A stretch of 48,242 nucleotides of DNA from Candidatus Woesearchaeota archaeon (GTDB taxonomy: Archaea; Nanobdellota; Nanobdellia; Woesearchaeales; CG1-02-33-12). The notes beneath the pieces are model-generated. The model was not told the origin of the DNA, did not search any database, and saw nothing but the letters and a program-made list of their open reading frames with translations. The position numbers and the translations under genes are program-made. Shown piece by piece: positions 6,710 through 28,118 of the stretch; within the stretch, counting starts at the first letter, position 1; every line of letters starts with the position of its first letter. The stretch is from the NCBI GenBank assembly GCA_017609385.1, contig JAFCEA010000001.1, positions 1 through 48,242 on the forward strand, in the 5' to 3' direction.

Positions 6710-7363
6710 ATGAATAAAAATAAGTTTTTAGAGGCCTTAAAAAAAGCAAAGCAGGGTTCTAAGAAGAGAAATTTCAAGCAAAAGGTTGATTTAATCTTTA
6801 ATCTTAAGGACTTAAACCTTAAAAAGCCAGAGCAGCAGGTAGAGTTCTTTGTAAAACTGCACTATAGCAAAGGCAGGGAATCAAAGATATGCGCTCTTGT
6901 AGGGCCAGAACTTGCAACTAAAGCAAAATCAGCATGTAATAATGTTATTCTAGTAGATGACTTTCAGAAGTATGCAGGGGATAAAAAACTATCAAAAAAA
7001 CTCTGCAATGACTATGATTTTTTTATAGCACAGGCAAATATAATGGCAAAGGTAGCTGCAGCATTTGGCAGAATTCTAGGACCAATGGGAAAGATGCCTA
7101 ATCCAAAAGCAGGCTGTGTTGTTACAGACAAGACAGATCTTAATGCACTTTGTGAAAACCTAAAAAAGACTGTTAAGATATCTGCAAAAACAAGCCTTAT
7201 AATACAATTAATAGTAGGTAATGAAGAAATGAAAGATGAAGAGATAGCTGATAATGCATATAATATTTATGAGCAGCTTATACATCATCTTCCTAATGAA
7301 AAAAATAATATAAAATCCATATTTTTAAAATTGACAATGGGTAAGCCAATAAAGGTGTTATAA
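6710..7363 (+). CDS. rpl1: 50S ribosomal protein L1 (uL1)
   Basis: Typical archaeal L1 sequence (KRNFKQKVDLIFNLKDL..., GPMGKMPNPKAG) in the conserved L1-P0-P1 gene order. GGAGG lies upstream. Confidence 0.93.
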   Translation: MNKNKFLEALKKAKQGSKKRNFKQKVDLIFNLKDLNLKKPEQQVEFFVKLHYSKGRESKICALVGPELATKAKSACNNVILVDDFQKYAGDKKLSKKLCNDYDFFIAQANIMAKVAAAFGRILGPMGKMPNPKAGCVVTDKTDLNALCENLKKTVKISAKTSLIIQLIVGNEEMKDEEIADNAYNIYEQLIHHLPNEKNNIKSIFLKLTMGKPIKVL

Positions 7364-8626
7364 ATGGTTCATGTTGCTGAATACAAGAAAAAGATTGTAA
7401 ATGAATTTGTTAATTTAATTAATTCTTACCCTGTTATTGGTGTTGTAGATATGGAAAACCTTCCAACTGCTCAGCTGCAAAAAATGAGGGAGCAGCTCAG
7501 AGACAAAGTTGTTATAAGAATGACTAAAAGAAGGTTGATGAACATAGCCTTTGATAAACTAAAAGATAGTAAGAAAGGCATTGAAGAAATGAAGAATTAT
7601 TTAACAGGCATGCCCACACTTTTGTTCACAAAAGATGACCCATTCAAGCTTGCAAAAACCTTAAAGAAAAGCATGTCAACAGCTCCTGCAAAGCCCGGCC
7701 AGGTTGCACCAAAAGACATTATAGTTAGTGCTGGACCAACACCATTCAGTCCTGGACCAGTTATAAGCGAGCTTGCATCTGTAGGCATAAAAACAGCTAT
7801 TGAAAGTGGCAAGATTGTTGTTAAGAGCGATGCTATTGTTGTAAAAAAAGGGGACAAGGTAAGCCAAGCTATTGCAGGAATCCTTGCAAGATTGGGTGTT
7901 GAGCCAATGGATGTTGGCCTTAATTTAACAGCTGTTTATGATAATGGAACAATATTTACAAGGGATGTCCTTGATATTGATGAAGAGGAATTTATTGGTA
8001 AGATAAAAACAGCATATAACTCTGCTCTTGGACTTGCTCTTGAAATCTCCTTCCTGACTAAAGAAACTATTGAGATGATGATAGCAAAGGCTTTCAGAGA
8101 GACAAAAACCATTGCTTTATCACAAAACATAATGGCTGATGACGTAAAGGAAGAGATTGTGGCAAAGGCAACCAAAGAAATGCTTGCCCTGAAATCAAAA
8201 TTAAATATTCATGATATACCCAAAGAGAAACCTAAAGAAGAAGAGAAAGAAGTTAAAGAAGAAAAAGAAGAGATTAAAAAAGAAACTGGAGAAAAACCAG
8301 CTGAAGAGAAAGAAGAAATCAAGGAACCAGAAGAAAAACCTAAAGAAGAGAAAAGTGAGGATAAGAAAGAGGAAGTTAAGGAAGAAGTCAAAAAAGAAGA
8401 ACAAAAGATAGAAATTAAAGCAGAGGATATTAAAGAAAAAACTAAAGCTGAAAAGCCTAAGGAAGAAGTTAAGAAAGAAGAACAACCAAAAGCAAAAACT
8501 GAAGTTAAGGAAAAACCAGAACAAGACGTTGAGACAAAAAAAGTAGAAACAAATGAAGAAACTAAGAAAGAGGAAAAACCCAAAGAAGAAGTTAAAACAG
8601 AGGAAAATCAAGATAAACAAAATTAA
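7364..8626 (+). CDS. rplP0: 50S ribosomal stalk protein P0 (uL10) with a ~135-aa Lys/Glu-rich C-terminal extension
   Basis: The N-terminal ~280 aa align with archaeal P0 (YKKKIVNEF..., TAQLQKMREQLRD, PGPVISELASVGI). The tail from ~8215 is a low-complexity KE/P repeat that ends ...EENQDKQN. Confidence 0.9.
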   Translation: MVHVAEYKKKIVNEFVNLINSYPVIGVVDMENLPTAQLQKMREQLRDKVVIRMTKRRLMNIAFDKLKDSKKGIEEMKNYLTGMPTLLFTKDDPFKLAKTLKKSMSTAPAKPGQVAPKDIIVSAGPTPFSPGPVISELASVGIKTAIESGKIVVKSDAIVVKKGDKVSQAIAGILARLGVEPMDVGLNLTAVYDNGTIFTRDVLDIDEEEFIGKIKTAYNSALGLALEISFLTKETIEMMIAKAFRETKTIALSQNIMADDVKEEIVAKATKEMLALKSKLNIHDIPKEKPKEEEKEVKEEKEEIKKETGEKPAEEKEEIKEPEEKPKEEKSEDKKEEVKEEVKKEEQKIEIKAEDIKEKTKAEKPKEEVKKEEQPKAKTEVKEKPEQDVETKKVETNEETKKEEKPKEEVKTEENQDKQN

Positions 8627-8650
8627 ATATAAAGTTTGGAGGTAAATAAA

Positions 8651-8959
8651 ATGGAGTATGTATATGCTGCAATGTTGATCCACAAAGCTGGAGGAAAAAT
8701 AGATGAAGCAACAGTAACAAAAGTATTAGAAGCTGCTGGAGCAAAACCAGATTCAGCAAGAGTCAAGGCCGTGGTGGCAGCCTTTGATGGAGTTGACATT
8801 GAGAAAGTAATCAAAGAATCATCTGTTATGCAGGTAGCAGCACCAGCTGCTGGTGAAGCAAAAGCAGAAGAGAAAAAGGAAGAAAAACCCAAAGCCAAAG
8901 AAGAAGAGAAGAAAAGCCAGGAACAGGCAGCTGCTGGTCTAGGTTCGTTGTTTGGTTGA
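8651..8959 (+). CDS. rpl12: 50S ribosomal stalk protein P1 (L12)
   Basis: MEYVYAAMLIHKAGG N-terminus and the canonical acidic tail ending GLGSLFG. GGAGGT at 8638-8643 supports the ATG at 8651 rather than the TTG at 8636. Confidence 0.93.
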   Translation: MEYVYAAMLIHKAGGKIDEATVTKVLEAAGAKPDSARVKAVVAAFDGVDIEKVIKESSVMQVAAPAAGEAKAEEKKEEKPKAKEEEKKSQEQAAAGLGSLFG

Positions 8960-8992
8960 TTAGTTTTATTTTTAATTATTAAGTGAGAGGAT

Positions 8993-9889
8993 ATGCCAGA
9001 AAAGAAGAATAAGAAGGAATTATTAAAAAATCTTAGCAAATGCAGAAAAGAAATAATTGAGTTAAGATTGAGTTTAAACCAGTTAGACAACCAAAAAGAA
9101 GAATGTTTTAAGAAAAAAGAAAAAGCAAGCAATGATCTTTCTAATTTTTTTAAAAAGATTAAAGAATTGAAAAATAGCAGAAATAACCTAACAAAAAAAG
9201 TTAAGGAACTAAAGTCTAAAAGGGAAAACTACAATAAGCTGATTAAGGAAAAAATTAGTGAGATAAAAAACGTTAACAATGAGAAAAAAGAGATTATAGA
9301 GAAGTTCAACCTAAAAGAGGATCCTTCTCAAATTAAACGTGATATTGAAAAACTTGAGATGAGAATAGAGACTGAAGTAATGCCTTTTGATAAAGAACAG
9401 AAGCTGATGAAAGAGATAAAGCTTAAGAAAAAGAAGTATAAGGAAGCAGAAAGAGTAAGCGAGGTCTGGAAAAAATCTGACTCTCTTTCAAAGGAAATTG
9501 ACAAGCTGAGAAAAGAGGCTGATGAAACCCATAAAAAAATTAGAAGTGATGCTGATGAAAGTCAGAAAAAGCATGATGAGATGATAAAACTATTAAAGGG
9601 TGTTGATGGTCTAAAAAAAGAGGAAGAGCTTGCTTATAAGAAATTCTTTGAATTTAAAAAGAAGTTGGCAGATGTTAATGATTTATTAAAGAAAAAACTG
9701 GTTGAAATAAATGAGATAAACAAAAAACTAGGATTATCCAGAGAAAAGGCAAAAAAAGAGAAAAAACAAAGACAGGAAAAAATAATAAAAGAAAAAGAGG
9801 AAAAGGTTGAAGATAAGATTAAGAAGAGGAAGAAACTTACAACAGAAGATCTTCTTGTATTCCAGAGATTAGATAACAAGGAGAAATAA
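8993..9889 (+). CDS. Lys/Glu-rich coiled-coil protein (resembles the archaeal COG1340-type coiled-coil family)
   Basis: 298 aa with heptad-like charged repeats throughout and no enzymatic motif. Family assignment is tentative. Confidence 0.6.
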   Translation: MPEKKNKKELLKNLSKCRKEIIELRLSLNQLDNQKEECFKKKEKASNDLSNFFKKIKELKNSRNNLTKKVKELKSKRENYNKLIKEKISEIKNVNNEKKEIIEKFNLKEDPSQIKRDIEKLEMRIETEVMPFDKEQKLMKEIKLKKKKYKEAERVSEVWKKSDSLSKEIDKLRKEADETHKKIRSDADESQKKHDEMIKLLKGVDGLKKEEELAYKKFFEFKKKLADVNDLLKKKLVEINEINKKLGLSREKAKKEKKQRQEKIIKEKEEKVEDKIKKRKKLTTEDLLVFQRLDNKEK

Positions 9890-19295: not shown

Positions 19296-19739
19296 TTGTC
19301 AGAAAATCTAAAGATAAGGATAAAGAAAATAAAAGAAAACGCAATTTTACCACATTATGCTCATGATGGTGATGCGGGGGTTGATCTTTATTCAACAGAA
19401 GATTATGTTCTTAAGCCTGGCCAGAGGATATTAGTCAGCACAGGGGTAATAATAGCTGTTCCACAGGGTTATGAAGCACAAATAAGGCCAAAATCAGGCC
19501 TTGCATTAAATCATGGAATTTCTGTATGCAACAGTCCTGGAACAATTGATTCAGGCTATCGTGGAGAGATTGGTGTTATAGCAATCAACCACAGCAAGGA
19601 AGAATTTAAGATAGAAAAAGGAACAAAGATTGCACAGCTGGTTTTCAATAAAATAGAAAAAGCAGAATTTGAAGAGGTCAAAAGTCTTGATAATACAAAA
19701 CGCGGCCATGGAGGTTTTGGAAGCACTGGATTGGTTTAA
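19296..19739 (+). CDS. dut: dUTP diphosphatase (trimeric dUTPase)
   Basis: AGVDLYS, GTIDSGYRGEIGVI and RGHGGFGSTG are the classical dUTPase motifs. The apparent start is TTG. Confidence 0.9.
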   Translation: MSENLKIRIKKIKENAILPHYAHDGDAGVDLYSTEDYVLKPGQRILVSTGVIIAVPQGYEAQIRPKSGLALNHGISVCNSPGTIDSGYRGEIGVIAINHSKEEFKIEKGTKIAQLVFNKIEKAEFEEVKSLDNTKRGHGGFGSTGLV

Positions 19740-19746
19740 AAGGCAA

Positions 19747-21819
19747 ATGGAAAACAATAATAATCACACTAAAACGCAGCTCATGACATCCTTTGGGGAT
19801 CTTGTTGAGCTAAGGGAAATAAAAATAAAAGATTCTTTAATAAAGGAAACTTCTATATCAGAAGAAAATGCAAAAAAAATTTCTCATGAGGCATATAATG
19901 AATTAATAAAACTTGATATACCAAAAACAACAACTATTGTAAGAGAGATTGTATGTATGAAGCTTCTGGAATCAAATCTTCTTAATGAAAACAAGGAATA
20001 TTCAAGGCTTGGAATGTCTGTTTCTGATGTCAAAGAGGTTATTTTCAAAAAGTTTAAAGAAAATGCCAATACAAACTATAATCTCCAGACAATACATAAA
20101 AGACTGGCAGATTCTATTTCTGCACAATACACACTATCTTACCTCTTGCCAAAAAAAGCTTCAAAAGCACATATGAAAGGTGAGATTCATATTCATGATT
20201 TGGATTATTTTCCAACAAGGCCATTTTGTTTTGAGCATGACATAAGGTTCTTCCTTAGACAGGGATTTATGTCAGACGGCAAAGGCATTCATACAGCTGT
20301 TTCAGGTCCTGCTAAGTCATTAGAGGTTGCCATGATACATGCTGCCAGGGTTTTACTCTTAAGCTCAACATATTTCTCAGGTGGTCAGGGATATGATGCA
20401 TTAAACCTTTTCTTGGCTCCTTATGCAAAAGGCCTTGAATACAAAAAAATAAAGCAGGCTGTTCAGGCATTTGTATATGAGCTTGATCAGCTTGATGTTG
20501 TCAAGGGAGGACAGACACCATTTACATCAGCAAGCTTTGAGTTCAATGTTCCATCTTACCTAAGGGATATTCCAGTAGTGTTGCCAGGTGGAAAGATAAC
20601 AGAAAAAGAATCATATCTTGACTATCTTGATGAGTCAAGGAAAATAATAAAGGCCTTTACAGAGGTTATGATTGATGGTGATTATAACAAAAAAGCATTT
20701 CACTTTCCAAAACCAGAGTACAAGATAAGGAAGGAAACACTTAAGGACAGTTCTGCAGATGAGCTTTTGTTTGATGTTCATAAGCTTGTTGCAAAATATG
20801 GCTCTCCCTATTTTCTTAACATGGCTGCACCATATATGCCTGAGGCCTTGCAAAGCCAGTGCTGCAGGTATTTTCTAAGGCCAGATGGTGATTTCTGGGA
20901 GGAGATAAAAACCGGGAATGTCCGCTCAGGCTCTTTGCAGACAGTAACAATAAATCTTCCAAATATTAGCTATAATGCAAAAGACGAATCTAATGTTTAT
21001 GAACTGATTGATGAAAGAATTAACATGACAAAGCATATATTTAATGTAAAGAGAAAATGTATAAAAGAGGTTATGAAAAGTGGATATGCATCTTTCCTTT
21101 CAATGGATTGTTATGGTAAGCCATACTATAAGCTAGATCAGGCAACAAATTCGATTGGTTTTATAGGCCTTAATGAAATGGTTAAAAAAATAACTGGCCA
21201 TGAGATGCACGAATCAAGGGATTCATGGAAATTTGGCTTAAAGATAATCAAATATATGTCAGATGCAGTTAATAAGAAGAAAGATGAAACAGGGCAAAGG
21301 TGGGGAATGGTCCAGACACCTGCTGAGTCAGCAACATTCAGGCTTGCCAACTTTGACTTAGAGAAATATAAGGACAAGGCTGTTGTTCAGGGTGATAGAA
21401 AAACAGGGGATGTTTATTACACAAACTCATCTCATGTCAATTATTCAGCTGACATATCATTATTTAAGAGGCTTGAGATAGATTCCTCATTCCACCCCCT
21501 GGTTCAGGGTGGTGCAATATCACACATATTTTTAGGTGAGAATAATCCAGACCCAGATGCTTTATTAAAGCTGACAAGAAGAATATGCTCCAATACATTA
21601 ACCTCTTATTTTGCTTATACAAAAGATATGACATATTGCAACTCATGTAAAAGAACAATTAGCGGTATTTATGAAAAATGCCCAAATTGCGGAGCAAAAG
21701 ACGATAATATTCAGTGGTACTCAAGAGTAACAGGGTATTACACACCTGTTAAGTCATGGAACAAAGGCAAGTTAAAGGAATTTATGGATAGACATAAATA
21801 CAATCTAAAAGGCATATAA
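19747..21819 (+). CDS. nrdD: Anaerobic ribonucleoside-triphosphate reductase (class III RNR)
   Basis: C-terminal Zn ribbon CNSC...CPNCG followed by the glycyl-radical motif SRVTGYY. The large NrdD core is present. The ATG at 19747, just after the dut stop, is preferred over the overlapping upstream start. Confidence 0.92.
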   Translation: MENNNNHTKTQLMTSFGDLVELREIKIKDSLIKETSISEENAKKISHEAYNELIKLDIPKTTTIVREIVCMKLLESNLLNENKEYSRLGMSVSDVKEVIFKKFKENANTNYNLQTIHKRLADSISAQYTLSYLLPKKASKAHMKGEIHIHDLDYFPTRPFCFEHDIRFFLRQGFMSDGKGIHTAVSGPAKSLEVAMIHAARVLLLSSTYFSGGQGYDALNLFLAPYAKGLEYKKIKQAVQAFVYELDQLDVVKGGQTPFTSASFEFNVPSYLRDIPVVLPGGKITEKESYLDYLDESRKIIKAFTEVMIDGDYNKKAFHFPKPEYKIRKETLKDSSADELLFDVHKLVAKYGSPYFLNMAAPYMPEALQSQCCRYFLRPDGDFWEEIKTGNVRSGSLQTVTINLPNISYNAKDESNVYELIDERINMTKHIFNVKRKCIKEVMKSGYASFLSMDCYGKPYYKLDQATNSIGFIGLNEMVKKITGHEMHESRDSWKFGLKIIKYMSDAVNKKKDETGQRWGMVQTPAESATFRLANFDLEKYKDKAVVQGDRKTGDVYYTNSSHVNYSADISLFKRLEIDSSFHPLVQGGAISHIFLGENNPDPDALLKLTRRICSNTLTSYFAYTKDMTYCNSCKRTISGIYEKCPNCGAKDDNIQWYSRVTGYYTPVKSWNKGKLKEFMDRHKYNLKGI

Positions 21820-21820
21820 A

Positions 21821-22195
21821 ATGAAGCTAATATTATTTACAGGAATAAATTGTCCAAAGTGCCCAAATGCAAGAAAGCTTGTAAGACAAGCAGCAAAAGA
21901 GCTTGGGTGGATTGAAGGAAAGGATTTTGTTGAAAAGCTTATTGACGGCCAGGATTTAAAAACTCCATCTATTACTGAGCTTGAAGGCAATAAATTACAT
22001 GTTGTCTCATCTGAAGATGAAATAACAAAGGATAATGTTCCAGCAGCAATAGGTGGCAAGGATCTAACAGTTGAGGCATTGATGTATCAGATTGCATCAA
22101 CACCTTCTATTGTGATAAATGAAAGGGCAGTTTTCAAGGGAGAGGTTCCATCAAAGGATGAACTTCTAAAAGAGATAAAAAAGGTGGAAGAATGA
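21821..22195 (+). CDS. Glutaredoxin/thioredoxin-like redoxin (CPKC active site), NrdH-like
   Basis: The N-terminus LFTGINCPKCPNARKL has a CxxC motif at the expected position. It sits between nrdD and nrdG. Confidence 0.7.
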   Translation: MKLILFTGINCPKCPNARKLVRQAAKELGWIEGKDFVEKLIDGQDLKTPSITELEGNKLHVVSSEDEITKDNVPAAIGGKDLTVEALMYQIASTPSIVINERAVFKGEVPSKDELLKEIKKVEE

Positions 22196-22304: not shown

Positions 22305-23054
22305 ATGCAGGCATATGTTGGTGGGATAGTTCCCTTATCAACAGTTGACTGGTCAGCTAATGTTTGCACAGTAATCTTTTTTTCAGGATGTGACTTCAAG
22401 TGTTGTTATTGCTACAATAAGAATTTTATAGATTTTAAAGAGGAATTCTTAAAAGATTTAAATGATATCAAAAAAGAGATAACAAAAAATTCTGATTTTA
22501 TTGATGCTGTTCTTTTCTCAGGAGGCGAAGCATGCCTTCAGAGGCAGGCATTACTAACCTTAGCAAGATTTACAAAAAAACTTGGTTTAAAGGTTGGAAT
22601 TGAAACTAATGGCTCAAAGCCCTATTCAATAAGATCGTTAATAAATGAAAATTTATTGGATTTTATTGCTTTAGATATAAAAGCTCCTTTTAAAAAAGAG
22701 ATTTTCGAAAGGGTTACACAATCAGGGACTTTTTTTAAAAGACCGGAAGATGTTATCAAGGATATTAAACAAACACTCAAAATATTAAAGAGGAATCAGG
22801 ATAAGATCCAGATAGAGTTGAGGACAACTGTTGTTCCAGGAGTTATTTTCAGAAAGCAGGATATTTTGGAGATCGCTGAAGAAATCAATGGATTAAACTG
22901 CAGATGGGTCTTGCAACCATTTATATCTAATAAAGGCACACTTGACCCAAAGATGAATAGTATAGAATCACCAACAAAAAAATTCTTAGAAAATCTAAAA
23001 AAAGAATGCCAAAAAAAATACAGCAAACTAAGAATTGATATTAAAACTGTATGA
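22305..23054 (+). CDS. nrdG: Anaerobic RNR activating protein (radical SAM)
   Basis: The CDFKCCYC CxxxCxxC cluster after a VDWSANV-type motif, GGE, and its position next to nrdD. Confidence 0.85.
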   Translation: MQAYVGGIVPLSTVDWSANVCTVIFFSGCDFKCCYCYNKNFIDFKEEFLKDLNDIKKEITKNSDFIDAVLFSGGEACLQRQALLTLARFTKKLGLKVGIETNGSKPYSIRSLINENLLDFIALDIKAPFKKEIFERVTQSGTFFKRPEDVIKDIKQTLKILKRNQDKIQIELRTTVVPGVIFRKQDILEIAEEINGLNCRWVLQPFISNKGTLDPKMNSIESPTKKFLENLKKECQKKYSKLRIDIKTV

Positions 23055-23055
23055 T

Positions 23056-23778
23056 TTAGTTTTCTTTAAGGAAATCTTCCCATATTTTTATTGCTTCTTT
23101 TTCTGTTTCCTCAACTGTTTTTGGAAAGTTTGTATCTAGATAAACAATCCTGGAACCATGGCTCTCGAACAGGTTTTTTAACCACTGGCTGTTGTACCTT
23201 TGCTCAACCTTTCTCTGAAAGTTTATCTCTTCAAAAATAGCCTTATCATGTTTTTGTCTCTGGCTTAGTCTTTGCATAACTGTTTCTGGTGCAACCTGTG
23301 CTATTATCAACAGGTTTGGAGAATTCTGCAATGCAAGCTTATTGCCTGGCAGTCTCATAATCTCTGTTAAGGGTATATTACCCTGAACAGGCTGGTAGAC
23401 AATAGAGCTTATAACACCCCTTTCCTGAAAAATATATTTATTTTGTTTTAAGGCAGGAATAATAACCATTTTGTAAAGTATTTCCCTATCAATGGAAAAT
23501 GCGTGTGCTGTAGAGGTTATTGAATAGTTGCGGTTGTTTTTTCTTACTATTTCTTCTCTTAAAGCACGCCCAACCCAGCAATAGCTCATCTCACAGGAAA
23601 CAATTACATCAAAGTCATTTATCTCTTCAGGCTCTGGAAACCTGTTTTTTTCCTTGCAATATGTCCTTAGATCAAATATCTTAAGCTGTTTTTGCTCAGC
23701 CCATTTTTTCAGGGCATTAACAATAACTCCCTTACCAGAACCGTCAAGGCCGTCAACCATCACAAACCTTTTCTTCAT
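23056..23778 (-). CDS. Thymidylate-kinase-family P-loop (deoxy)nucleotide kinase
   Basis: P-loop DGLDGSGKG and a Tmk-like layout, adjacent to dut/nrdDG. Substrate is not determinable. Confidence 0.65.
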   Translation of the reverse strand: MKKRFVMVDGLDGSGKGVIVNALKKWAEQKQLKIFDLRTYCKEKNRFPEPEEINDFDVIVSCEMSYCWVGRALREEIVRKNNRNYSITSTAHAFSIDREILYKMVIIPALKQNKYIFQERGVISSIVYQPVQGNIPLTEIMRLPGNKLALQNSPNLLIIAQVAPETVMQRLSQRQKHDKAIFEEINFQRKVEQRYNSQWLKNLFESHGSRIVYLDTNFPKTVEETEKEAIKIWEDFLKEN

Positions 23779-23837
23779 ATGAGAATTATTTGTAATAATC
23801 TATTTAAATCTTTTGAAAATCAGAAGTTTTATATTTT

Positions 23838-24437
23838 TTATCTAGAAGCATCTGCCTGTCTTTCAAGATCAAGTTTCTTTTTAATTGCATTTGATGAATT
23901 ACTTAACTGGTAGGCAGCTATTATCTCATCAGCAAGTGCATTAACAGCTTCTTTCTTGGAGTTGAAGGATTTTGTAAAAGCACCCTGAACCATATATCTC
24001 AATGCAAGATCAACCCTTCTTTGAGGAGCACACTCAACAGCCTTTGGATAACGTGCTCCACCATATTCTATTGTTATTATTTCTTCCCTTGGTGCTGCAT
24101 TCTCCAGTGCCTTGACAAAAACAGCGATTGGATTCTGTTTTGTCCTGTTTTCAATGATTTTAAATGTTTCCTCAACAAGAGAATATGCTGATTGGCTCTT
24201 CCCTGTTGATTTGTATGAAGTTATAAAGTGCTTTTTTCCTTTGTGTCCTGGTATCATTATTTTGTTTATTAATCTCTCAACAATAAATGTCTTTGATTTG
24301 TGGAACCTTGCACCAGCATATCTTGCACCTGTCTTTGGTATTATCTTTGGCTCTAGATTAATGTATCTCTTTAACCCAGGATCCTCTACTTTTATTCCAT
24401 TTATACTCCATCTGTTAAATACCTTTATATCTTCCAT
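23838..24437 (-). CDS. rps7: 30S ribosomal protein S7 (uS7)
   Basis: The full-length archaeal S7 pattern (RFHKSK..., IVERLINKIM, YGGARYPKAV, ALRYMVQGA). Confidence 0.92.
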   Translation of the reverse strand: MEDIKVFNRWSINGIKVEDPGLKRYINLEPKIIPKTGARYAGARFHKSKTFIVERLINKIMIPGHKGKKHFITSYKSTGKSQSAYSLVEETFKIIENRTKQNPIAVFVKALENAAPREEIITIEYGGARYPKAVECAPQRRVDLALRYMVQGAFTKSFNSKKEAVNALADEIIAAYQLSNSSNAIKKKLDLERQADASR

Positions 24438-24518
24438 TTTAATGCTTATTTCATAGAGGGGGGTTTGAGTTCATATTTAAAGCTTTCTGTGGTGATACAA
24501 AAAATAAAGTTAAAAAAG

Positions 24519-24619
24519 AATAAAAATTCTTATGAACATACTTTTGTCATGTAGCTTGATTCGGGATTTGTATTAATTATGTGCTCATTAGAATAATAGA
24601 CTTTATTAAGAACAGTCAT
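24519..24619. repeat. Direct repeat copy A (101 bp): an orphan copy of the 3' end of gene 27444-28118
   Basis: Base-for-base identical to 27433-27533 by direct comparison. On the minus strand it encodes MTVLNKVYYSNEHIINTNPESSYMTKVCS-stop. Confidence 0.95.
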
Positions 24620-24641
24620 TATAAATGCATTCTGTCTTACC

Positions 24642-25235
24642 TTAAAGGATATATTCTAATGTTTTGCTGGTTACAGCTATTTTATCCTGATGAGAATCAA
24701 TTCTGTAGATTCTACGCTCCAAAGAAACTGCATCAATGGCTACTCTAAAGTTATTTAAATAGCACTCAAATTCAGGGGTTATACCTAAAAGCCGTTTCTT
24801 GATTAATTCCATGCCAGCAAAATAGATTATATGAAAATCCTCTATAGGAACATAATGAATATCTTGGCAGAGTGTATCAACAATTTTTTTGGATTCCTCA
24901 AATGTTCTAGTTCTTATAAGGCGAGCGATTGCTGATGACTTTATTGTAACATATCCCCTATCCAAAAGAACAATATCACTCTCTATATTTTGACACAAAT
25001 CATTCCTTCTTTTTGCACCGACAATATTAATTTTAACAATCTCTCTTGGATCCTTTGAAACATACCAGCCCTTTCTTTCTTCAAGAGATTGCGGATAATC
25101 TGAATTAAAATACACTACAGAGTCAGGGATAAAAACTCCTAATCCTTTCTTTGAGAAATGATCATTCAGCAGTTTTACCTGTGTGCTTTTCCCAACACCA
25201 TCTATGCCACCAATCTCAATTATTGTTTTTTTCAT
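24642..25235 (-). CDS. Thymidylate-kinase-family P-loop kinase (island gene 4)
   Basis: GGIDGVGKST P-loop and the LLDRGY (DR[YH]-like) motif. 197 aa. Its start overlaps the NUDIX stop (ATGA). Confidence 0.7.
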   Translation of the reverse strand: MKKTIIEIGGIDGVGKSTQVKLLNDHFSKKGLGVFIPDSVVYFNSDYPQSLEERKGWYVSKDPREIVKINIVGAKRRNDLCQNIESDIVLLDRGYVTIKSSAIARLIRTRTFEESKKIVDTLCQDIHYVPIEDFHIIYFAGMELIKKRLLGITPEFECYLNNFRVAIDAVSLERRIYRIDSHQDKIAVTSKTLEYIL

Positions 25236-25651
25236 TTCAAAAGCTCTGCATTTATCTTCTTAAATAGATCTTTTAAAGTCCTGAATGGAAGACGCCTTAA
25301 TACAGTTCCATAATCATAAAATCCAAATTCAGAATGTTCAGATCCTATATGAATCTCATCTTCAGACAGCTTAACATAAAACACTGCAAGTTCATGTCTA
25401 ATAAGCTCATCATCTTTCTTTGATTCAAAGGAATAGGTATATTTTGATTTTATAGCTGAAGTTATTGATAATGACGCCTCCTCCTTGACCTCGCGGAACA
25501 GAGCTTGTTCATCAGTCTCATCGGCTTCTTTACCGCCTTTCAGAAACTCATATCCAACCCAGCCTTCTTTTCTCTTGAACAAGGCATATAATATTTTCTT
25601 GTTTTCTTTTTTATATAATATTGCTAAAATTCCTTTTTTTATTTTGACCAT
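25232..25651 (-). CDS. NUDIX hydrolase (island gene 3)
   Basis: The Nudix box reads GGKEADETDEQALFREVKEEASL, i.e. G-x5-E-x7-REVxEE. Confidence 0.85.
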   Translation of the reverse strand: MVKIKKGILAILYKKENKKILYALFKRKEGWVGYEFLKGGKEADETDEQALFREVKEEASLSITSAIKSKYTYSFESKKDDELIRHELAVFYVKLSEDEIHIGSEHSEFGFYDYGTVLRRLPFRTLKDLFKKINAELLK

Positions 25652-25654
25652 TTT

Positions 25655-26269
25655 TCATTTATTAATAACCTTAACTATCAAAGATATAGCACTTTTGATA
25701 TTTTTATTCTCAATTACAGGAATAGTATATTTTCTTGCACAATCCACTAAAAAATCATTGAGTTCCCTAATTGCCTTAAAATTATCAAAGTAAAATTTTG
25801 GCTGCTGATAAGACTTTTTAAGCCTGTTGAGAATATTCCTTTTATGCTCTTTACTATTTACAGATAAGCAAACTGTTTGCACATTATTCTTTTTTATTAG
25901 TTTTTCTATTAAGTTTGGATGGAGATGTACTCCTTCCATGATAATGTTCCTTCCCCAAGAATCATTAATGTTTATTACACCAGAAATCTCTTTCTCAATC
26001 TGCTCCGAATATTTCTCGTATCCCAAAAGAATATTCTTTTGGCTCTGTTTTTTTCCAAATAGCTCCCAGGATTTAAAAGAATATGTGTTAATATACTGGT
26101 TCTTGGGTTCTTGGACTGCCTTTATTCCTCTTATTATATCCGTATCTATTACCTGCTCAATTCCAAGTTCTATAGCTAGTTTATAAGATATTGTAGATTT
26201 ACCTGAGACAGGTGCACCCATAATTAAAATTATTTTATTTCTTGACTTTTGGAATTGGCTTAAATTCAT
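25655..26269 (-). CDS. P-loop kinase resembling the 2-phosphoglycerate-kinase (COG2074) family (island gene 2)
   Basis: IMGAPVSGKSTISYKLAIELGI..VIDTDIIR...IIMEGVHLHP follows the 2PGK-like ATPase pattern. Confidence 0.65.
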   Translation of the reverse strand: MNLSQFQKSRNKIILIMGAPVSGKSTISYKLAIELGIEQVIDTDIIRGIKAVQEPKNQYINTYSFKSWELFGKKQSQKNILLGYEKYSEQIEKEISGVININDSWGRNIIMEGVHLHPNLIEKLIKKNNVQTVCLSVNSKEHKRNILNRLKKSYQQPKFYFDNFKAIRELNDFLVDCARKYTIPVIENKNIKSAISLIVKVINK

Positions 26270-27038
26270 TTTGGTTTACCTTAACTAATCCTCTTGAATA
26301 ATCCTTACAAAAATAGCAAAAATCCATTATAAACTGCAAATCAGCTGATTTTTCTTCTTTGGAGCTTTGCAATTCTTTCTTTGATTTGTTGGAGATTGTA
26401 AGCAACCTATATCCAAGTTGTGCATCTATATTTTTTGAAAATGAATTTATAATATCCTCTTTCTGCGATGTATATATGCCTTTCAGTAAAAGGGTTGTTT
26501 TTGCGATGACAAAAGATATGTTTATACATTTATGATATGAAGACAATGATTTGTAGAGCTCTGTAATCAATTCAGATATATTAGAGTAAAGCTCAAAGGG
26601 GTGGTATTGAGCAGTATACCCTTCCAAATCTGCTTTTAAATCCTTACCATAAATTCTTTGAGAATTAAGAATATCATAAAGGAAAGATGTTCTTTTCTTT
26701 CCATGTGTATGCGCCTTGAATATTTTAATATCCTCCTTGAGATCATTTATCTCAGAATAACACGTTGAAATCTTTATTCCACTCTTTTTACTGATCCGGC
26801 TTATATTTTCCTCTAATGTATGTATATCTTCAAAAGAGGGTTTCTCAACAATCAAGGATAAATCTATATCACTGTATCTAAAATCAAAGTTTTTGGTATA
26901 ATAACTGCCAGCACTATATACTGAATAAAGCGAAGGGCAATTAGTAAATGCCTGATAAAGTATTTGTCTTAATTCTTTTGATTTATTCATAGCTTTTTTT
27001 AAAACAAATTTCTCGTTAGGTTCTACATCTATGTTCAT
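26235..27038 (-). CDS. Pol-beta-superfamily nucleotidyltransferase with a helical C-terminal domain (island gene 1)
   Basis: YSAGSYYTKNFDFRYSDIDLSLIV gives the G-S ... D-x-D minimal NTase signature. The C-terminal ~150 aa are helical. It overlaps the next gene by 35 nt. Confidence 0.7.
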   Translation of the reverse strand: MNIDVEPNEKFVLKKAMNKSKELRQILYQAFTNCPSLYSVYSAGSYYTKNFDFRYSDIDLSLIVEKPSFEDIHTLEENISRISKKSGIKISTCYSEINDLKEDIKIFKAHTHGKKRTSFLYDILNSQRIYGKDLKADLEGYTAQYHPFELYSNISELITELYKSLSSYHKCINISFVIAKTTLLLKGIYTSQKEDIINSFSKNIDAQLGYRLLTISNKSKKELQSSKEEKSADLQFIMDFCYFCKDYSRGLVKVNQNEFKPIPKVKK

Positions 27039-27432
27039 TATTATTTTTCCTCTCTTTTTGCTCAGACTTTTAAATTATATAGCCAATGGTGTTTTATCCT
27101 TTAAATCAATATAAATTATATTATTATTCCTTTGTTTTTGAGATTGTCAATAACACAACAACTATTTCTGTTTAACCTGTCTTCTTCTACAATAAAGTTA
27201 CCCCTTTCATTTCAAACTTTCAATTATATAGGTTATTTTGCATATCTAACCTATTTAAATATTTTGGTTATAAATCCCCAAGATTTTCAACAGTGCTGGA
27301 AATAATAGTATTTCATATAAAGTTTTCATGTGTCTTGTTCTTTGGGTAGCCTGCTTCTTTTTTTCTTTTATTTTAAAAGTAGTGGATTATCATTCTAAGA
27401 TGCTAGATTATATAAAATCAAGGAAAAGAAGA

Positions 27433-27533
27433 AATAAAAATTCTTATGAACATACTTTTGTCATGTAGCTTGATTCGGGATTTGTATTAATTATGTGCTC
27501 ATTAGAATAATAGACTTTATTAAGAACAGTCAT
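27433..27533. repeat. Direct repeat copy B (101 bp): the genuine 3' end (29 codons, stop and 11 nt) of gene 27444-28118
   Basis: Identical to 24519-24619. Confidence 0.95.
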
Positions 27534-28118
27534 ATTAAATCTTAGTCTGAACAGATAAACTTTGTTTTTCTCAAGATTAAAGTCAGCGTCAGTAGTGCAT
27601 TCATCACAGATTTCAAAGTATTTATATCTCTCAAACAGGCCATCCATCTTATAAACTTCCTTGTATTCCTGGTTAACATCCTCTTTAACCTCAAATGCAA
27701 TGTCTTTTGGAAGAACCCCTGTCTTAAAATAAACAAAGCCTCCATTTTTCCCTTTTATGCATGCTGGCTTTACTGTCACATTAACTATTGATGTGCCTTC
27801 CTCATTAGTCAGGATTGGCTCAAAATATGTATTTAATTCTATTTCAGGGATAGTTTCACACTCATTAGAATTATCAACCACCCTCTTATCAGGGCATACA
27901 TATTTTGTTAAAGTTATTGTTTCTGTCTCTGTTTTTGTTTTCTCAGGGCATAATGAGCAGTCCATGACACAATCAGGGCATTTTTCACATATGCATTCAG
28001 GGCATTCAGGGCATTCTGCTGGTTTCTGAAATATAAAAGCAAACACAAGAACAATTACTATAACTACAAACGATGTAATGTATGGCATATCCTCTTTTTT
28101 AAAGATTCCTTTTTTCAT
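27444..28118 (-). CDS. Membrane-anchored Cys-rich extracellular protein (hypothetical)
   Basis: N-terminal TM helix, then ECPECPECICEKCPDCVMDCSLCPE. It carries the motif KYVCPDKRVVDNSNEC, shared with gene 30298-31011. Confidence 0.65.
   Translation of the reverse strand: MKKGIFKKEDMPYITSFVVIVIVLVFAFIFQKPAECPECPECICEKCPDCVMDCSLCPEKTKTETETITLTKYVCPDKRVVDNSNECETIPEIELNTYFEPILTNEEGTSIVNVTVKPACIKGKNGGFVYFKTGVLPKDIAFEVKEDVNQEYKEVYKMDGLFERYKYFEICDECTTDADFNLEKNKVYLFRLRFNMTVLNKVYYSNEHIINTNPESSYMTKVCS

Follow-up and report, generated by a model that had tools for sequence, protein, structure and literature searches.

A 101-bp duplication of a gene tail brackets a four-gene cassette upstream of rps7 in a Woesearchaeota genome

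Layout of the repeats and the cassette

The window analysed here is a stretch of 48,242 nucleotides from contig JAFCEA010000001.1 (assembly GCA_017609385.1) of a Candidatus Woesearchaeota archaeon. Within it, segments 24519-24619 and 27433-27533 match at 101/101 positions, which agrees with the base-for-base identity reported in the initial annotation, and the similarity drops off immediately beyond both edges. This pair is the sole long repeat within the 48 kb window. A 23-mer taken from the repeat, with up to three mismatches allowed, occurs at exactly two sites, where shuffles predict 0.01, and the 101-mer, for which a generic multi-copy repeat had initially been considered, was found not to be one. 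A 32-mer from the repeat had no exact match in the JGI metagenome collection, which evidently lacks the source samples. The insert between the two copies occupies 24620-27432 (2,813 bp), and the features of the locus are as follows.

23838-24437, minus strand: rps7 (archaeal S7), start codon at 24437
24469-24486: conserved BRE/TATA-like element of rps7, AAAGCTTTAAATATGAAC, intact and downstream of copy A
24519-24619, minus strand: repeat copy A, an orphan duplicate of the membrane-protein gene tail with no gene body
24620-24635, minus strand: insert tail, 16 nt, reading ACAGAATGCATTTATA on the minus strand
24642-25235, minus strand: cassette gene 4, P-loop kinase distantly related to thymidylate kinase, 197 aa
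25232-25651, minus strand: cassette gene 3, Nudix hydrolase, 139 aa
25655-26269, minus strand: cassette gene 2, P-loop kinase of the 2-phosphoglycerate kinase / mevalonate-3-phosphate-5-kinase type, 204 aa
26235-26990, minus strand: cassette gene 1, two-domain Pol-beta-type nucleotidyltransferase (NTase), 251 aa, in an open reading frame that reaches 27038
26991-27432, minus strand: 5' non-coding region of the insert, 442 nt, without a convincing open reading frame
27433-27533, minus strand: repeat copy B, the functional 3' end of the membrane-protein gene (29 codons, stop codon and 11 nt of 3' flank)
27444-28118, minus strand: target gene, conserved Cys-rich membrane protein, 224 aa, without a Pfam family

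The open reading frame coordinates bear out the earlier description of both copies, with copy B supplying the last 29 codons, the stop codon and 11 nt beyond open reading frame 27444-28118, and copy A being the same tail without a gene body, 81 nt before the rps7 start codon and 22 nt downstream of the last cassette gene. On the minus strand, copy A starts exactly with an ATG, continues as an open frame of 29 codons (MTVLNKVYYSNEHIINTNPESSYMTKVCS, followed by the stop codon) and has an oligo-T tract at its end. Folding of the repeat gave no RNA-structure signal (z-score +0.47).

The four cassette reading frames are closely packed (24642-25235, 25232-25651, 25655-26269 and 26235-27038), being separated in that order by a 4-nt overlap, a 3-nt gap and a 35-nt overlap. 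The initial annotation had described the interior as a four-gene operon and a 394-nt non-coding stretch; the operon stands, and a non-coding length of 442 nt is likelier, as the NTase probably starts at the ATG at 26990, where its homologues start. A G-S...D-I-D motif is seen in the NTase with alignment, and its AlphaFold2 model (mean pLDDT 86) has as best PDB folds the AadA/ANT(3'')(9)/AAD(9) adenylyltransferases, at E ~5e-6 but a TM score of only ~0.3. Searching the PDB by sequence with the NTase and both kinases returned nothing useful. Gene 2 matches NCBIfam PRK04220 at E = 3e-39, yet below the equivalog cut-off, and in one distant homologous cassette (L029) this kinase is fused to a Nudix domain. 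The Nudix hydrolase itself scores above the Pfam NUDIX cut-off (38.5 bits), and PADLOC gave only a weak-to-moderate match of this protein to candidate family PDC-S07 and recognised no defence system. The matches of gene 4 to Pfam Thymidylate_kin (19.9 bits, cut-off 27), to an NCBIfam dTMP kinase model and to PHROG 761 all fall below the curated cut-offs.

The leader upstream of the NTase gene contains a TATA-like element, TTTAAATA, at 27252-27259, which is a putative promoter. No structure signal was obtained on folding the 442-nt leader (z-score +1.87), and an Rfam search of 24400-27700 at permissive E-values returned no matches. The GC content of the insert (0.30-0.33) shows no compositional contrast with the flanks (0.33-0.35).

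Independent assemblies, empty sites and a second cassette location

In addition to the window, several assemblies contain all or part of this arrangement. Both copies lie together with the cassette on one independent contig, L001/L003 (JGI contig Ga0366824_1021884), with a single distinguishing SNP. Contig JAFCBX010000007.1 starts inside copy B, of which it retains 83 nt, and continues through the insert and copy A, and contig k141_147837 of ERZ27248386 includes the copy B junction. The same junctions are present in L041, L036 and L037, lineages that are ~90% identical. As an independent contig spans both copies and two diverged lineages have the same junctions, the insertion structure is real and an assembly artefact is ruled out. 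A chimeric join or collapsed repeat that created the duplicated 101-mer could be imagined from the origin of the window in a short-read metagenome assembly, the splitting of the region over two contigs in sample 3300033148 and the fact that 101 nt is also a common read length, but its probability is negligible, given that the break in that sample falls within the NTase gene (window 26422-26521), away from the repeat, and that two more assemblies, from lineages ~10% diverged, have the same boundaries with substitutions of their own. Perfect repeats in metagenome-assembled genomes are not necessarily artefacts.

In relatives of four lineages (L005-L022; 63-87% protein identity), the site is empty, and the gene order is a THUMP gene, the membrane-protein gene, rps7 ~30-100 nt downstream, and then Tmk. 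The membrane-protein gene lies directly upstream of rps7 in every examined relative without the cassette, and the repeat is single-copy in relatives without the insert. These empty sites are collinear with both junction flanks of the window, with no target bases lost, and the locus therefore carries an insertion with a clean duplication of its target. Deletion of one repeat and the interior had been predicted in the initial annotation to recreate a simple junction, for which an empty site with the 27444-28118 homologue directly upstream of rps7 was to be sought; the four relative lineages have exactly this junction.

The cassette also exists at a second chromosomal location. In sister lineages it is flanked by genes for a Glu/Gln-tRNA synthetase and a metallophosphoesterase, at a locus that more widely includes thermosome, rubrerythrin, desulfoferrodoxin and Ogg genes. 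The window cassette is 88% identical, with zero gaps, to the copies in L023-L027, L039, L040 and L042, and 91.5% identical to that in L038, and this range of 88-92% is comparable to host-gene divergence. The insert is thus homologous to a chromosomal locus of sister lineages and, of genes, holds only the operon of that locus. Its 16-nt tail is homologous to the L038 intergenic sequence that follows the cassette there, which places the 3' breakpoint 16 nt inside the donor intergenic region, and its 5' 253-442 nt have no detectable homologue at the L040/L023 locus, where the upstream region is not alignable. More distant homologues of the cassette (~50% identity) were found on contigs resembling mobile elements, one with Ku, ligase and PCNA genes (L028) and one with an MCM gene (L029). 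No flanking direct repeats were found around the cassette copies at other loci in L040, L032, L028 and L029.

The L041 cassette, which sits at the occupied site, is slightly closer to the native-locus cassette of L038 (93.8%) than to the window cassette (92.2%), a pattern that a single ancestral relocation does not simply predict. From these identities, either inter-lineage recombination, a retained second copy or repeated insertion would be needed. By their host genes, the window, the occupied lineage L041 and the empty-site lineage L005 are at approximately equal distances from one another, with conflict from gene to gene.

Shared substitutions in the two repeat copies

Within a genome, copies A and B differ at 0/101 sites in the window, 1/101 in L003 and 3/83 in L041, while orthologous copies of the window and L041 differ at 6-8 sites per 83-101. 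Lineage-specific bases are present in both copies of the same genome: T15 and A78 in the window lineage, and A79 and C84 in the L041 lineage. The same is seen over a much shorter distance at position 39, which is C in both window copies and T in both L003 copies, in contigs that are 98.6-100% identical over aligned blocks, including 1,676 nt of identical cassette sequence. Lineage-specific substitutions common to both copies, together with a within-genome similarity that exceeds the between-genome similarity, support the view that the copies evolve in concert by gene conversion, an exchange read here from the comparative pattern. Such conversion would explain the perfect identity of the copies in the window. 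Bubble popping in short-read assemblies can inflate the identity of repeat copies, and the fact that the copies do differ in L003 and L041 argues against this source. The pattern resembles the concerted evolution of dispersed repeats in both respects, namely within-genome likeness greater than between-genome likeness and shared derived changes, and is evidence, at the level of sequence, for homologous recombination and gene conversion over ~100-bp tracts in these archaea.

We also considered whether copy A may have been kept by selection as a functional sequence, either encoding a 29-residue peptide or serving as a terminator or insulator upstream of the rps7 promoter. Oligo-T tracts accompany archaeal transcription termination, and one ends the repeat; in addition, the ATG of copy A begins 22 nt past the last cassette gene, and its frame is open in L041 and L003. 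Purifying selection, however, cannot yield the same lineage-specific and mostly synonymous changes in both copies, L041 and L037 carry a non-conservative Thr-to-Asp change at codon 2 of copy A that copy B does not share, and an RNA-structure signal is absent, which leaves a selected function for copy A very improbable.

Origin of the insertion

We consider it probable that the locus arose by a one-off, host-mediated duplicative insertion and that the copies have since been homogenised by recombination. In this event a whole transcription unit, namely the NTase / P-loop kinase / Nudix / Tmk-like kinase operon with its 5' non-coding region and a further 16 nt on the 3' side, would have been placed between the tail of the membrane-protein gene and the rps7 promoter, with duplication of 101 bp of the target (the last 29 codons, the stop codon and the start of the oligo-T tract). 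As a result of this duplication, the end of the target gene would be kept, the cassette would be given a T-rich 3' end and the upstream context of the rps7 promoter would remain native. The duplication may have formed through a staggered break with fill-in, through a template switch during replication that resumed 101 nt behind its point of departure, or through a single crossover of circular DNA that already bore the 101 bp. The copies would since have exchanged sequence by gene conversion, and the same recombination should at times excise the cassette, which would return the locus to its empty form. Duplicative recombination, the second option in the initial annotation, fits these data better than the site-specific integration that had been proposed alongside it, and we infer that the event was mediated by the host and was not the act of an autonomous mobile element.

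The architecture has features of a target-site duplication of the transposon or casposon kind, as the duplication is clean on both sides and no target bases are lost. No transposase, Cas1 or terminal inverted repeats were found at the insert, however, and the insertion is single: multiple insertions, each with its own target duplication, were not found, and only one repeat-flanked site exists. A target duplication of 101 bp is also far longer, by roughly an order of magnitude, than those of known transposases. The bracketing repeat of ~100 bp is at the same time what a Campbell-type pop-in would leave as a single-crossover product and the substrate for pop-out; that design is a laboratory construct, whereas the present case is a natural locus in an uncultivated archaeon, where recombination is read from sequence.

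The chief alternative, which we regard as unlikely, is that the insert is an integrated mobile element, with the repeats as attL and attR and an attP on the circular element that mimics the gene tail; its integrase would since have been deleted or would act in trans, in a manner that is Xer-dependent or like that of the H47 island. The locus has the layout expected when an element integrates at a gene's 3' end and regenerates it, relatives have the single-copy empty site, and the ~50% identical cassette homologues lie on the mobile-element-like contigs described above. In L041 and L036, copy-specific differences lie near the outer edges of the repeat (copy A positions 4-5 and copy B position 99), as hybrid att sites would show, although edge-biased differences are equally expected under gene conversion. 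There are also precedents in the literature (PMC6563490, PMC6379469, PMC3191183). According to PMC6379469, citing Hill et al. 1989, e14 and phage 21 have their integration site at the 3' end of E. coli icd, and e14 leaves a 163-bp pseudo-icd. e14 is like the present insert in lying in the 3' end of a protein gene, with the tail present twice, the gene intact, an orphan fragment on the far side and excision restoring a simple junction; it differs as a prophage with an integrase and an excisionase, whereas the present insert is a chromosomal operon without a recombinase in a DPANN archaeon. In Thaumarchaeota, 14/68 integrated elements are targeted to the 3' end of a protein gene (PMC6563490), and these elements share with our locus the bracketing direct repeats, the type of target and the use of empty sites for validation. 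They carry integrases, Cas1 or transposases together with typical mobile-element genes, whereas the insert described here does not. The microcin H47 island of E. coli moves without its own recombinase, its excision and integration having been demonstrated experimentally and without homologous recombination (PMC3191183; see also PMC5426353). Like our insert, it is small and cargo-only, with long direct repeats, no recombinase of its own and a repeat that is single in island-free genomes; unlike it, the H47 repeats are imperfect, and our repeat is a gene tail.

Several observations argue against this alternative. No recombinase was detected in the four cassette reading frames by Pfam, NCBIfam, PADLOC or PHROGs scans, and no recombinase families were present among the Pfam records of called genes within ~10 kb on the independent contigs. 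The absence of an integrase, a transposase and inverted termini, already pointed out in the initial annotation, is therefore upheld by family scans and sequence inspection. Besides the 253-442-nt leader and the 16 nt of tail, the insert is only the repeat-free chromosomal operon of the sister lineages, the tail itself is homologous to a housekeeping locus there, and the GC content matches that of the flanks. Searches of IMG/VR viral contigs with the P-loop kinase, a conserved 22-mer of the leader, a degenerate 29-mer of the repeat and an NTase family alignment gave no matches, so that neither an attP-like copy of the repeat nor a relative of the cassette was found there, and phage and plasmid records likewise gave none when the full 3,015 bp were compared with them by blastn. 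In addition, 101 bp exceeds the reported archaeal att ranges, which are 8 to ~26 bp in most Thaumarchaeota and 29-69 bp in Crenarchaeota (PMC6563490). Integration of a mobile element at a specific site, as first proposed, is thus unsupported, and duplications of gene tails do not necessarily imply integrases. Three further candidates had no supporting feature and were dropped: an integron cassette, as there is neither an attC-like structure nor IntI; mRNA retroposition, as a reverse transcriptase is lacking and the insert carries the presumed promoter; and an SSV-type split integrase, as the target gene encodes a conserved membrane protein that all relatives have.

A different possibility, decidedly unlikely in our estimation, is recombinase-free shuttling, in which a 2,914-bp circle pops out by homologous recombination and re-enters the empty sites of related lineages through a single crossover at the conserved gene tail or a double crossover in the flanks. 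On this view, repeated recent re-insertion or lateral spread, and not conversion alone, would account for the junctions common to these lineages and for the identity of the copies within a genome. The window and L041 cassettes are indeed more similar (92.2%) than the flanking rps7 (87.0%) and Tmk (89.9%) genes, C94 is found in copy A in L041 and in copy B in L036, and the equidistance of occupied and empty lineages, with conflicting host genes, indicates that lineages recombine. Against this, a circular or tandem form was not found among the fetched contigs, nor an empty-site contig in the population of the window. Moreover, the difference between C39 in both window copies and T39 in both L003 copies arose within one insertion lineage and needs copy-to-copy exchange anyway, and shuttling does not explain the origin of the first duplication. 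There is a slim chance that the repeat-cassette-repeat unit goes further and is a recombinase-free mobile cassette, with the 101-bp tail as a portable landing pad; its 2.9-kb circle would re-enter related Woesearchaeota chromosomes, and perhaps viruses or plasmids, through host homologous recombination or a trans-acting recombinase. If so, such a cassette would spread the NTase / kinase / Nudix / kinase module, which also occurs on virus- or plasmid-like contigs.

Under the favoured one-off insertion, the locus is a clean and comparatively validated case in which small DPANN genomes would move or acquire entire operons with no recognisable enzyme of a mobile element. The host organisms are not yet amenable to genetics. 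The locus is a natural pop-out substrate, and the presence or absence of the cassette could mark strains. The conserved module itself, an AadA-like nucleotidyltransferase with two P-loop kinases and a Nudix hydrolase, may merit functional study.

Finally, leader segment 26991-27179 (189 nt) is missing in L041 and L036, and ~147 nt of the NTase gene (26520-26665, minus strand; 49 codons, in frame) are missing in L003; no bounding direct repeats were found at either indel. The L003 NTase reading frame consequently has 218 aa versus 267 aa, in a contig that is otherwise near-identical to the window.

The repeat pair and the empty site

The segments 24519-24619 and 27433-27533 match at 101 of 101 positions, and outside them similarity falls immediately to background. 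A 23-mer of the repeat occurs exactly twice in the window with three mismatches allowed (0.01 expected from shuffles), and the 48 kb window holds no second long repeat of comparable kind. The relevant genes at the locus are all on the minus strand.

Features of the locus, in order of transcription
27444-28118, minus strand, membrane-protein gene (target gene)
27433-27533, minus strand, copy B: last 29 codons, stop codon and 11 nt of 3' flank of the ORF 27444-28118
24620-27432, minus strand, insert: an ORF-free stretch and four tightly packed ORFs (the cassette)
26235-26990, minus strand, cassette gene 1, first transcribed: two-domain Pol-beta-type nucleotidyltransferase (NTase), by its G-S...D-I-D motif
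within the insert, minus strand, cassette gene 2: P-loop kinase, 2-phosphoglycerate kinase / mevalonate-3-phosphate-5-kinase type (NCBIfam E = 3e-39, below the equivalog cut-off)
within the insert, minus strand, cassette gene 3: Nudix hydrolase (Pfam, above cut-off)
within the insert, minus strand, cassette gene 4: second P-loop kinase, a distant relative of thymidylate kinase
24519-24619, minus strand, copy A: the gene tail without gene body; 22 nt separate it from the last cassette gene (upstream) and 81 nt from the start codon of rps7 (downstream)
23838-24437, minus strand, rps7

The coordinates and description in the initial annotation were correct in every detail checked. The non-coding stretch of 394 nt that it reported is indeed free of ORFs, and its length is probably 442 nt, because close homologues of the first cassette gene begin at ATG 26990 (251 aa). 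None of the membrane protein's 39 homologues has a Pfam family, and the two with named sources come from bins labelled Nanoarchaeota archaeon. It had been predicted that relatives would carry this gene directly upstream of rps7, and that arrangement was found in all empty-site contigs examined (L005-L022), which encode membrane-protein homologues at 87%, 78%, 71% and 63% identity. In every one of these contigs the gene order is DnaK, DnaJ, two PKD-domain proteins, THUMP protein, membrane protein, rps7 and Tmk, with only about 30-100 nt between the membrane-protein gene and rps7, no cassette, and the repeat in single copy. Alignment to these contigs shows the window to be collinear with the empty site on both sides, in the flank upstream of copy B as well as in the one following copy A, which includes a conserved promoter-like element (AAAGCTTTAAATATGAAC, 24469-24486); no target bases were lost at insertion. 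The event is therefore a clean 2,813-bp insertion (24620-27432) with a 101-bp target duplication.

Archaeal 16S and 23S rRNA genes in the window, together with protein relatives in metagenome-assembled genomes labelled Nanoarchaeota or Candidatus Woesearchaeota, identify the organism on sequence grounds as an uncultivated DPANN archaeon; window GC is about 33%, with no compositional step at the insert. The chance that the repeat pair is an assembly artefact is practically negligible, as an independent JGI contig (Ga0366824_1021884, L001/L003; sample 3300033153; 23.6 kb) carries the membrane-protein gene, copy B, cassette, copy A, rps7 and downstream genes, with the two copies differing at one position. 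In sample 3300033148 the locus lies on two contigs, and the break falls inside the NTase gene (window 26422-26521) rather than at the repeat. The same junctions, with their own substitutions, are present in two further assemblies of lineages about 10% diverged: JAFCBX010000007.1 (L041), which begins within copy B and contains 83 nt of it, the insert and copy A, and ERZ27248386 k141_147837 (L036), which has the copy B junction. A copy A junction is also present in Ga0164313_10149208 (L037). Although labelled 'Methanosarcinales archaeon AB_1215_Bin_111', the L041 scaffold shares the window's gene order and about 86-90% identity with it across 8.7 kb, so that mis-binning of a Woesearchaeota-like contig is probable.

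The cassette and its native locus

The AlphaFold2 model of the NTase has a mean pLDDT of 86, and among PDB folds it comes closest to the aminoglycoside adenylyltransferases AadA/ANT(3'')(9)/AAD(9), with E about 5e-6 and TM-scores of only about 0.3. The four-gene module would form a nucleotide- or small-molecule-modifying pathway. Family scans and a repeat search found no integrase, transposase, Cas1, replication protein or terminal inverted repeats in the insert, bearing out the lack of integrase, transposase and inverted termini noted initially, and a transposon or casposon was rejected on the missing transposase, Cas1 and inverted repeats.

The content of the cassette varies among strains. 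About 147 nt of the NTase gene (window 26520-26665; 49 codons, in frame) are missing from the near-identical L003, giving a protein of 218 aa versus 267 aa, and no direct repeats lie at the deletion boundaries. The two contigs of sample 3300033148 overlap at 26422-26521, and because the assembly breaks exactly at the place of this deletion, both NTase variants are suggested to coexist in that sample; in some strains the cassette may be in decay. Directly ahead of the probable NTase start, the window and L003 have a 189-nt segment (26991-27179) of which L035 has a part; it is absent from L041 and L036, though their insertion is the same as that of the window; it has no second copy in the window or the fetched loci.

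The same four genes occur in contigs L023-L027, L039, L040 and L042 (the last from Candidatus Woesearchaeota archaeon CG10_big_fil_rev_8_21_14_0_10_33_12), at 88% DNA identity to the window, gap-free over 2,313 nt. There the cassette stands between a Glu/Gln-tRNA synthetase gene, which is transcribed divergently, and a metallophosphoesterase gene, with thermosome, rubrerythrin, a thioredoxin-reductase-like gene, desulfoferrodoxin and Ogg as further neighbours. This native locus is a plain housekeeping neighbourhood, and no direct repeats flank the cassette in it. Another version, in L038, is 91.5% identical to that of the window; this contig begins inside the cassette, with the metallophosphoesterase side alone visible. 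Homology between the window and L023 or L040 stops 6 nt past the last stop codon, while that with L038 runs on through the 16-nt insert tail (ACAGAATGCATTTATA in the window, ACAGGAGGCATTCTTG in L038), so the 3' breakpoint of the insert lies within the donor's intergenic region. About 46 nt of the intergenic region after the cassette in L038 (1674-1725) are missing from L023 and L040; they open with 16 nt that correspond to the insert tail. The 5' leader of the insert is common to L041 and L036 (about 91% identity) and is not alignable to the region upstream of the cassette in L040 or L023. One sample yielded both a native-locus contig (L040, Ga0210017_1000134) and an empty-site contig (L006, Ga0210017_1003157), which fits, without proving, a single organism whose cassette is at the native locus and whose rps7 site is empty.

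Distant versions of the module, with NTases about 50% identical, lie on two contigs resembling viruses or plasmids. The one at L028 10001-12561 shares its contig with many small ORFs, Ku, DNA ligase, PCNA and PHROG 1250; at L029 2511-4723, on a contig with MCM, the kinase and Nudix parts form a single fused protein of 332 aa, in support of the two being functionally linked. A further version is followed by a methyltransferase gene at a chromosomal-looking locus (L032-L034). Searches of phage and plasmid records and of IMG/VR viral contigs gave no relatives of the repeat or cassette.

Probable exchange between the copies and among lineages

Copies A and B differ at 0 of 101 positions in the window, 1 of 101 in L003 and 3 of 83 in L041, whereas between the window and L041 copy A differs at 8 of 101 positions and copy B at 6 of 83. 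Independent copies should have diverged at least as far as orthologues, about 7%, and if the insertion predates the window/L041 split, the probability of no differences in 101 sites is about 4e-4 by our own arithmetic. With empty sites as outgroups, the derived states T15 and A78 are found in both copies of the window/L003 lineage, and A79 and C84 in both copies of the L041/L036/L037 lineage. The window and L003 are 98.6-100% identical across aligned blocks, including 1,676 identical nt of cassette, and despite this both window copies have C39 and both L003 copies T39. The copies are more alike within genomes than between them, and repeated copy-to-copy exchange (gene conversion) is the simplest explanation. 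Short-read assemblers can homogenise repeats, yet two assemblies resolved the copies as different. In the L041 lineage most of the copy-specific differences sit towards the ends of the repeat (copy A positions 4-5, and positions 94 and 99); C94 is carried by copy A in L041 and by copy B in L036. Conversion tracts reach repeat edges least often, and this distribution fits gene conversion; hybrid att sites would look alike, so it does not discriminate.

In rps7, Tmk and NrdG, roughly equal distances (87-91% identity) separate the window, L041 (occupied) and L005 (empty) from one another, and these lineages evidently recombine, since the genes conflict with each other. Across 22305-24437, pairwise identities of the same genes among the window, L041, L005, L015 and L011 also conflict (L015 versus L005: 91.8% in NrdG but 79.6% in Tmk), a mosaic that suggests frequent homologous recombination among populations. 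At 92.2% identity the cassettes of the window and L041 are somewhat more alike than the rps7 genes beside them (87.0%). The cassette of L041 is slightly nearer to the native-locus one of L038 (93.8%, mosaic profile 85-97.5%) than to that of the window. These data allow three histories: one insertion followed by losses in some lineages, an occupied allele that spread laterally through homologous recombination, or a retained second copy with exchange between the copies. In a scan of a genome collection the JAFCBX01 bin gave a single cassette locus, which, as far as bin completeness permits, weakly favours relocation over duplication of the cassette. The neighbourhood has a second presence/absence polymorphism: NrdD and the adjacent thioredoxin-like gene (window 19669-22195) are present in the window and L005 and absent from L041, L011, L015 and L019, while the NrdG-like radical-SAM gene is retained in L041 and L011 and was not called in L015 and L019.

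Origin of the insertion

The comparisons show that the cassette has a source locus in the chromosome and that the two copies evolve in concert. We think that the insert probably, though not securely, arose by a single host-mediated duplicative insertion. A widely staggered break could have been filled in, a replication template switch could have returned 101 nt behind its departure point, or circular DNA already carrying the gene tail could have entered by a single crossover. Selection would have retained the product because the duplication spares the C-terminus of the membrane protein, leaves each of the two transcription units with a T-rich 3' end and keeps native sequence ahead of the rps7 promoter. 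Homologous recombination would afterwards keep the copies alike and should occasionally delete the cassette.

Integration by an integrase or host recombinase, with the enzyme lost or acting in trans, is unlikely. The geometry is that of insertion into the 3' end of a protein gene with the tail regenerated, as for e14 in icd, where a 163-bp pseudo-icd is left (PMC6379469), and for archaeal integrated elements, 14 of 68 of which in Thaumarchaeota target 3' ends of protein genes (PMC6563490). However, the 101-bp repeat exceeds in length the att sites so far reported from Archaea (mostly 8-26 bp for those of Thaumarchaeota, 29-69 bp for those of Crenarchaeota; PMC6563490), and the search for three defining features found no recombinase, mobile-element genes or attP-bearing free form. 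Of the two origins offered in the initial annotation, duplicative recombination fits better, and site-specific integration is not supported. Shuttling by recombinase-free pop-out and pop-in is unlikely, and a recombinase-free mobile cassette using the gene tail as a landing pad quite unlikely. In descriptive terms the insert resembles islands that lack a recombinase and have long direct repeats on both sides, such as the microcin H47 island (PMC3191183). It is very improbable that copy A is functional and under selection, and neither the leader nor the repeat matches an Rfam family or gives an RNA-structure signal. All this points to a scar of genome rearrangement, tidy but ordinary, in which gene conversion is ongoing, and not to a new integration system.

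Elsewhere in the window, the 16S-23S spacer has a short tRNA-like Rfam match (1592-1649; 58 nt, 32.5 bits), which may be a truncated or atypical spacer tRNA; ARAGORN called none in the whole window. At 8218-9821 a long repetitive stretch of low complexity, purine-rich and Lys/Glu-rich, coincides with strong AT and GC skew and comprises 22 degenerate 50-nt repeat copies, one an outlier at 7216-7265.
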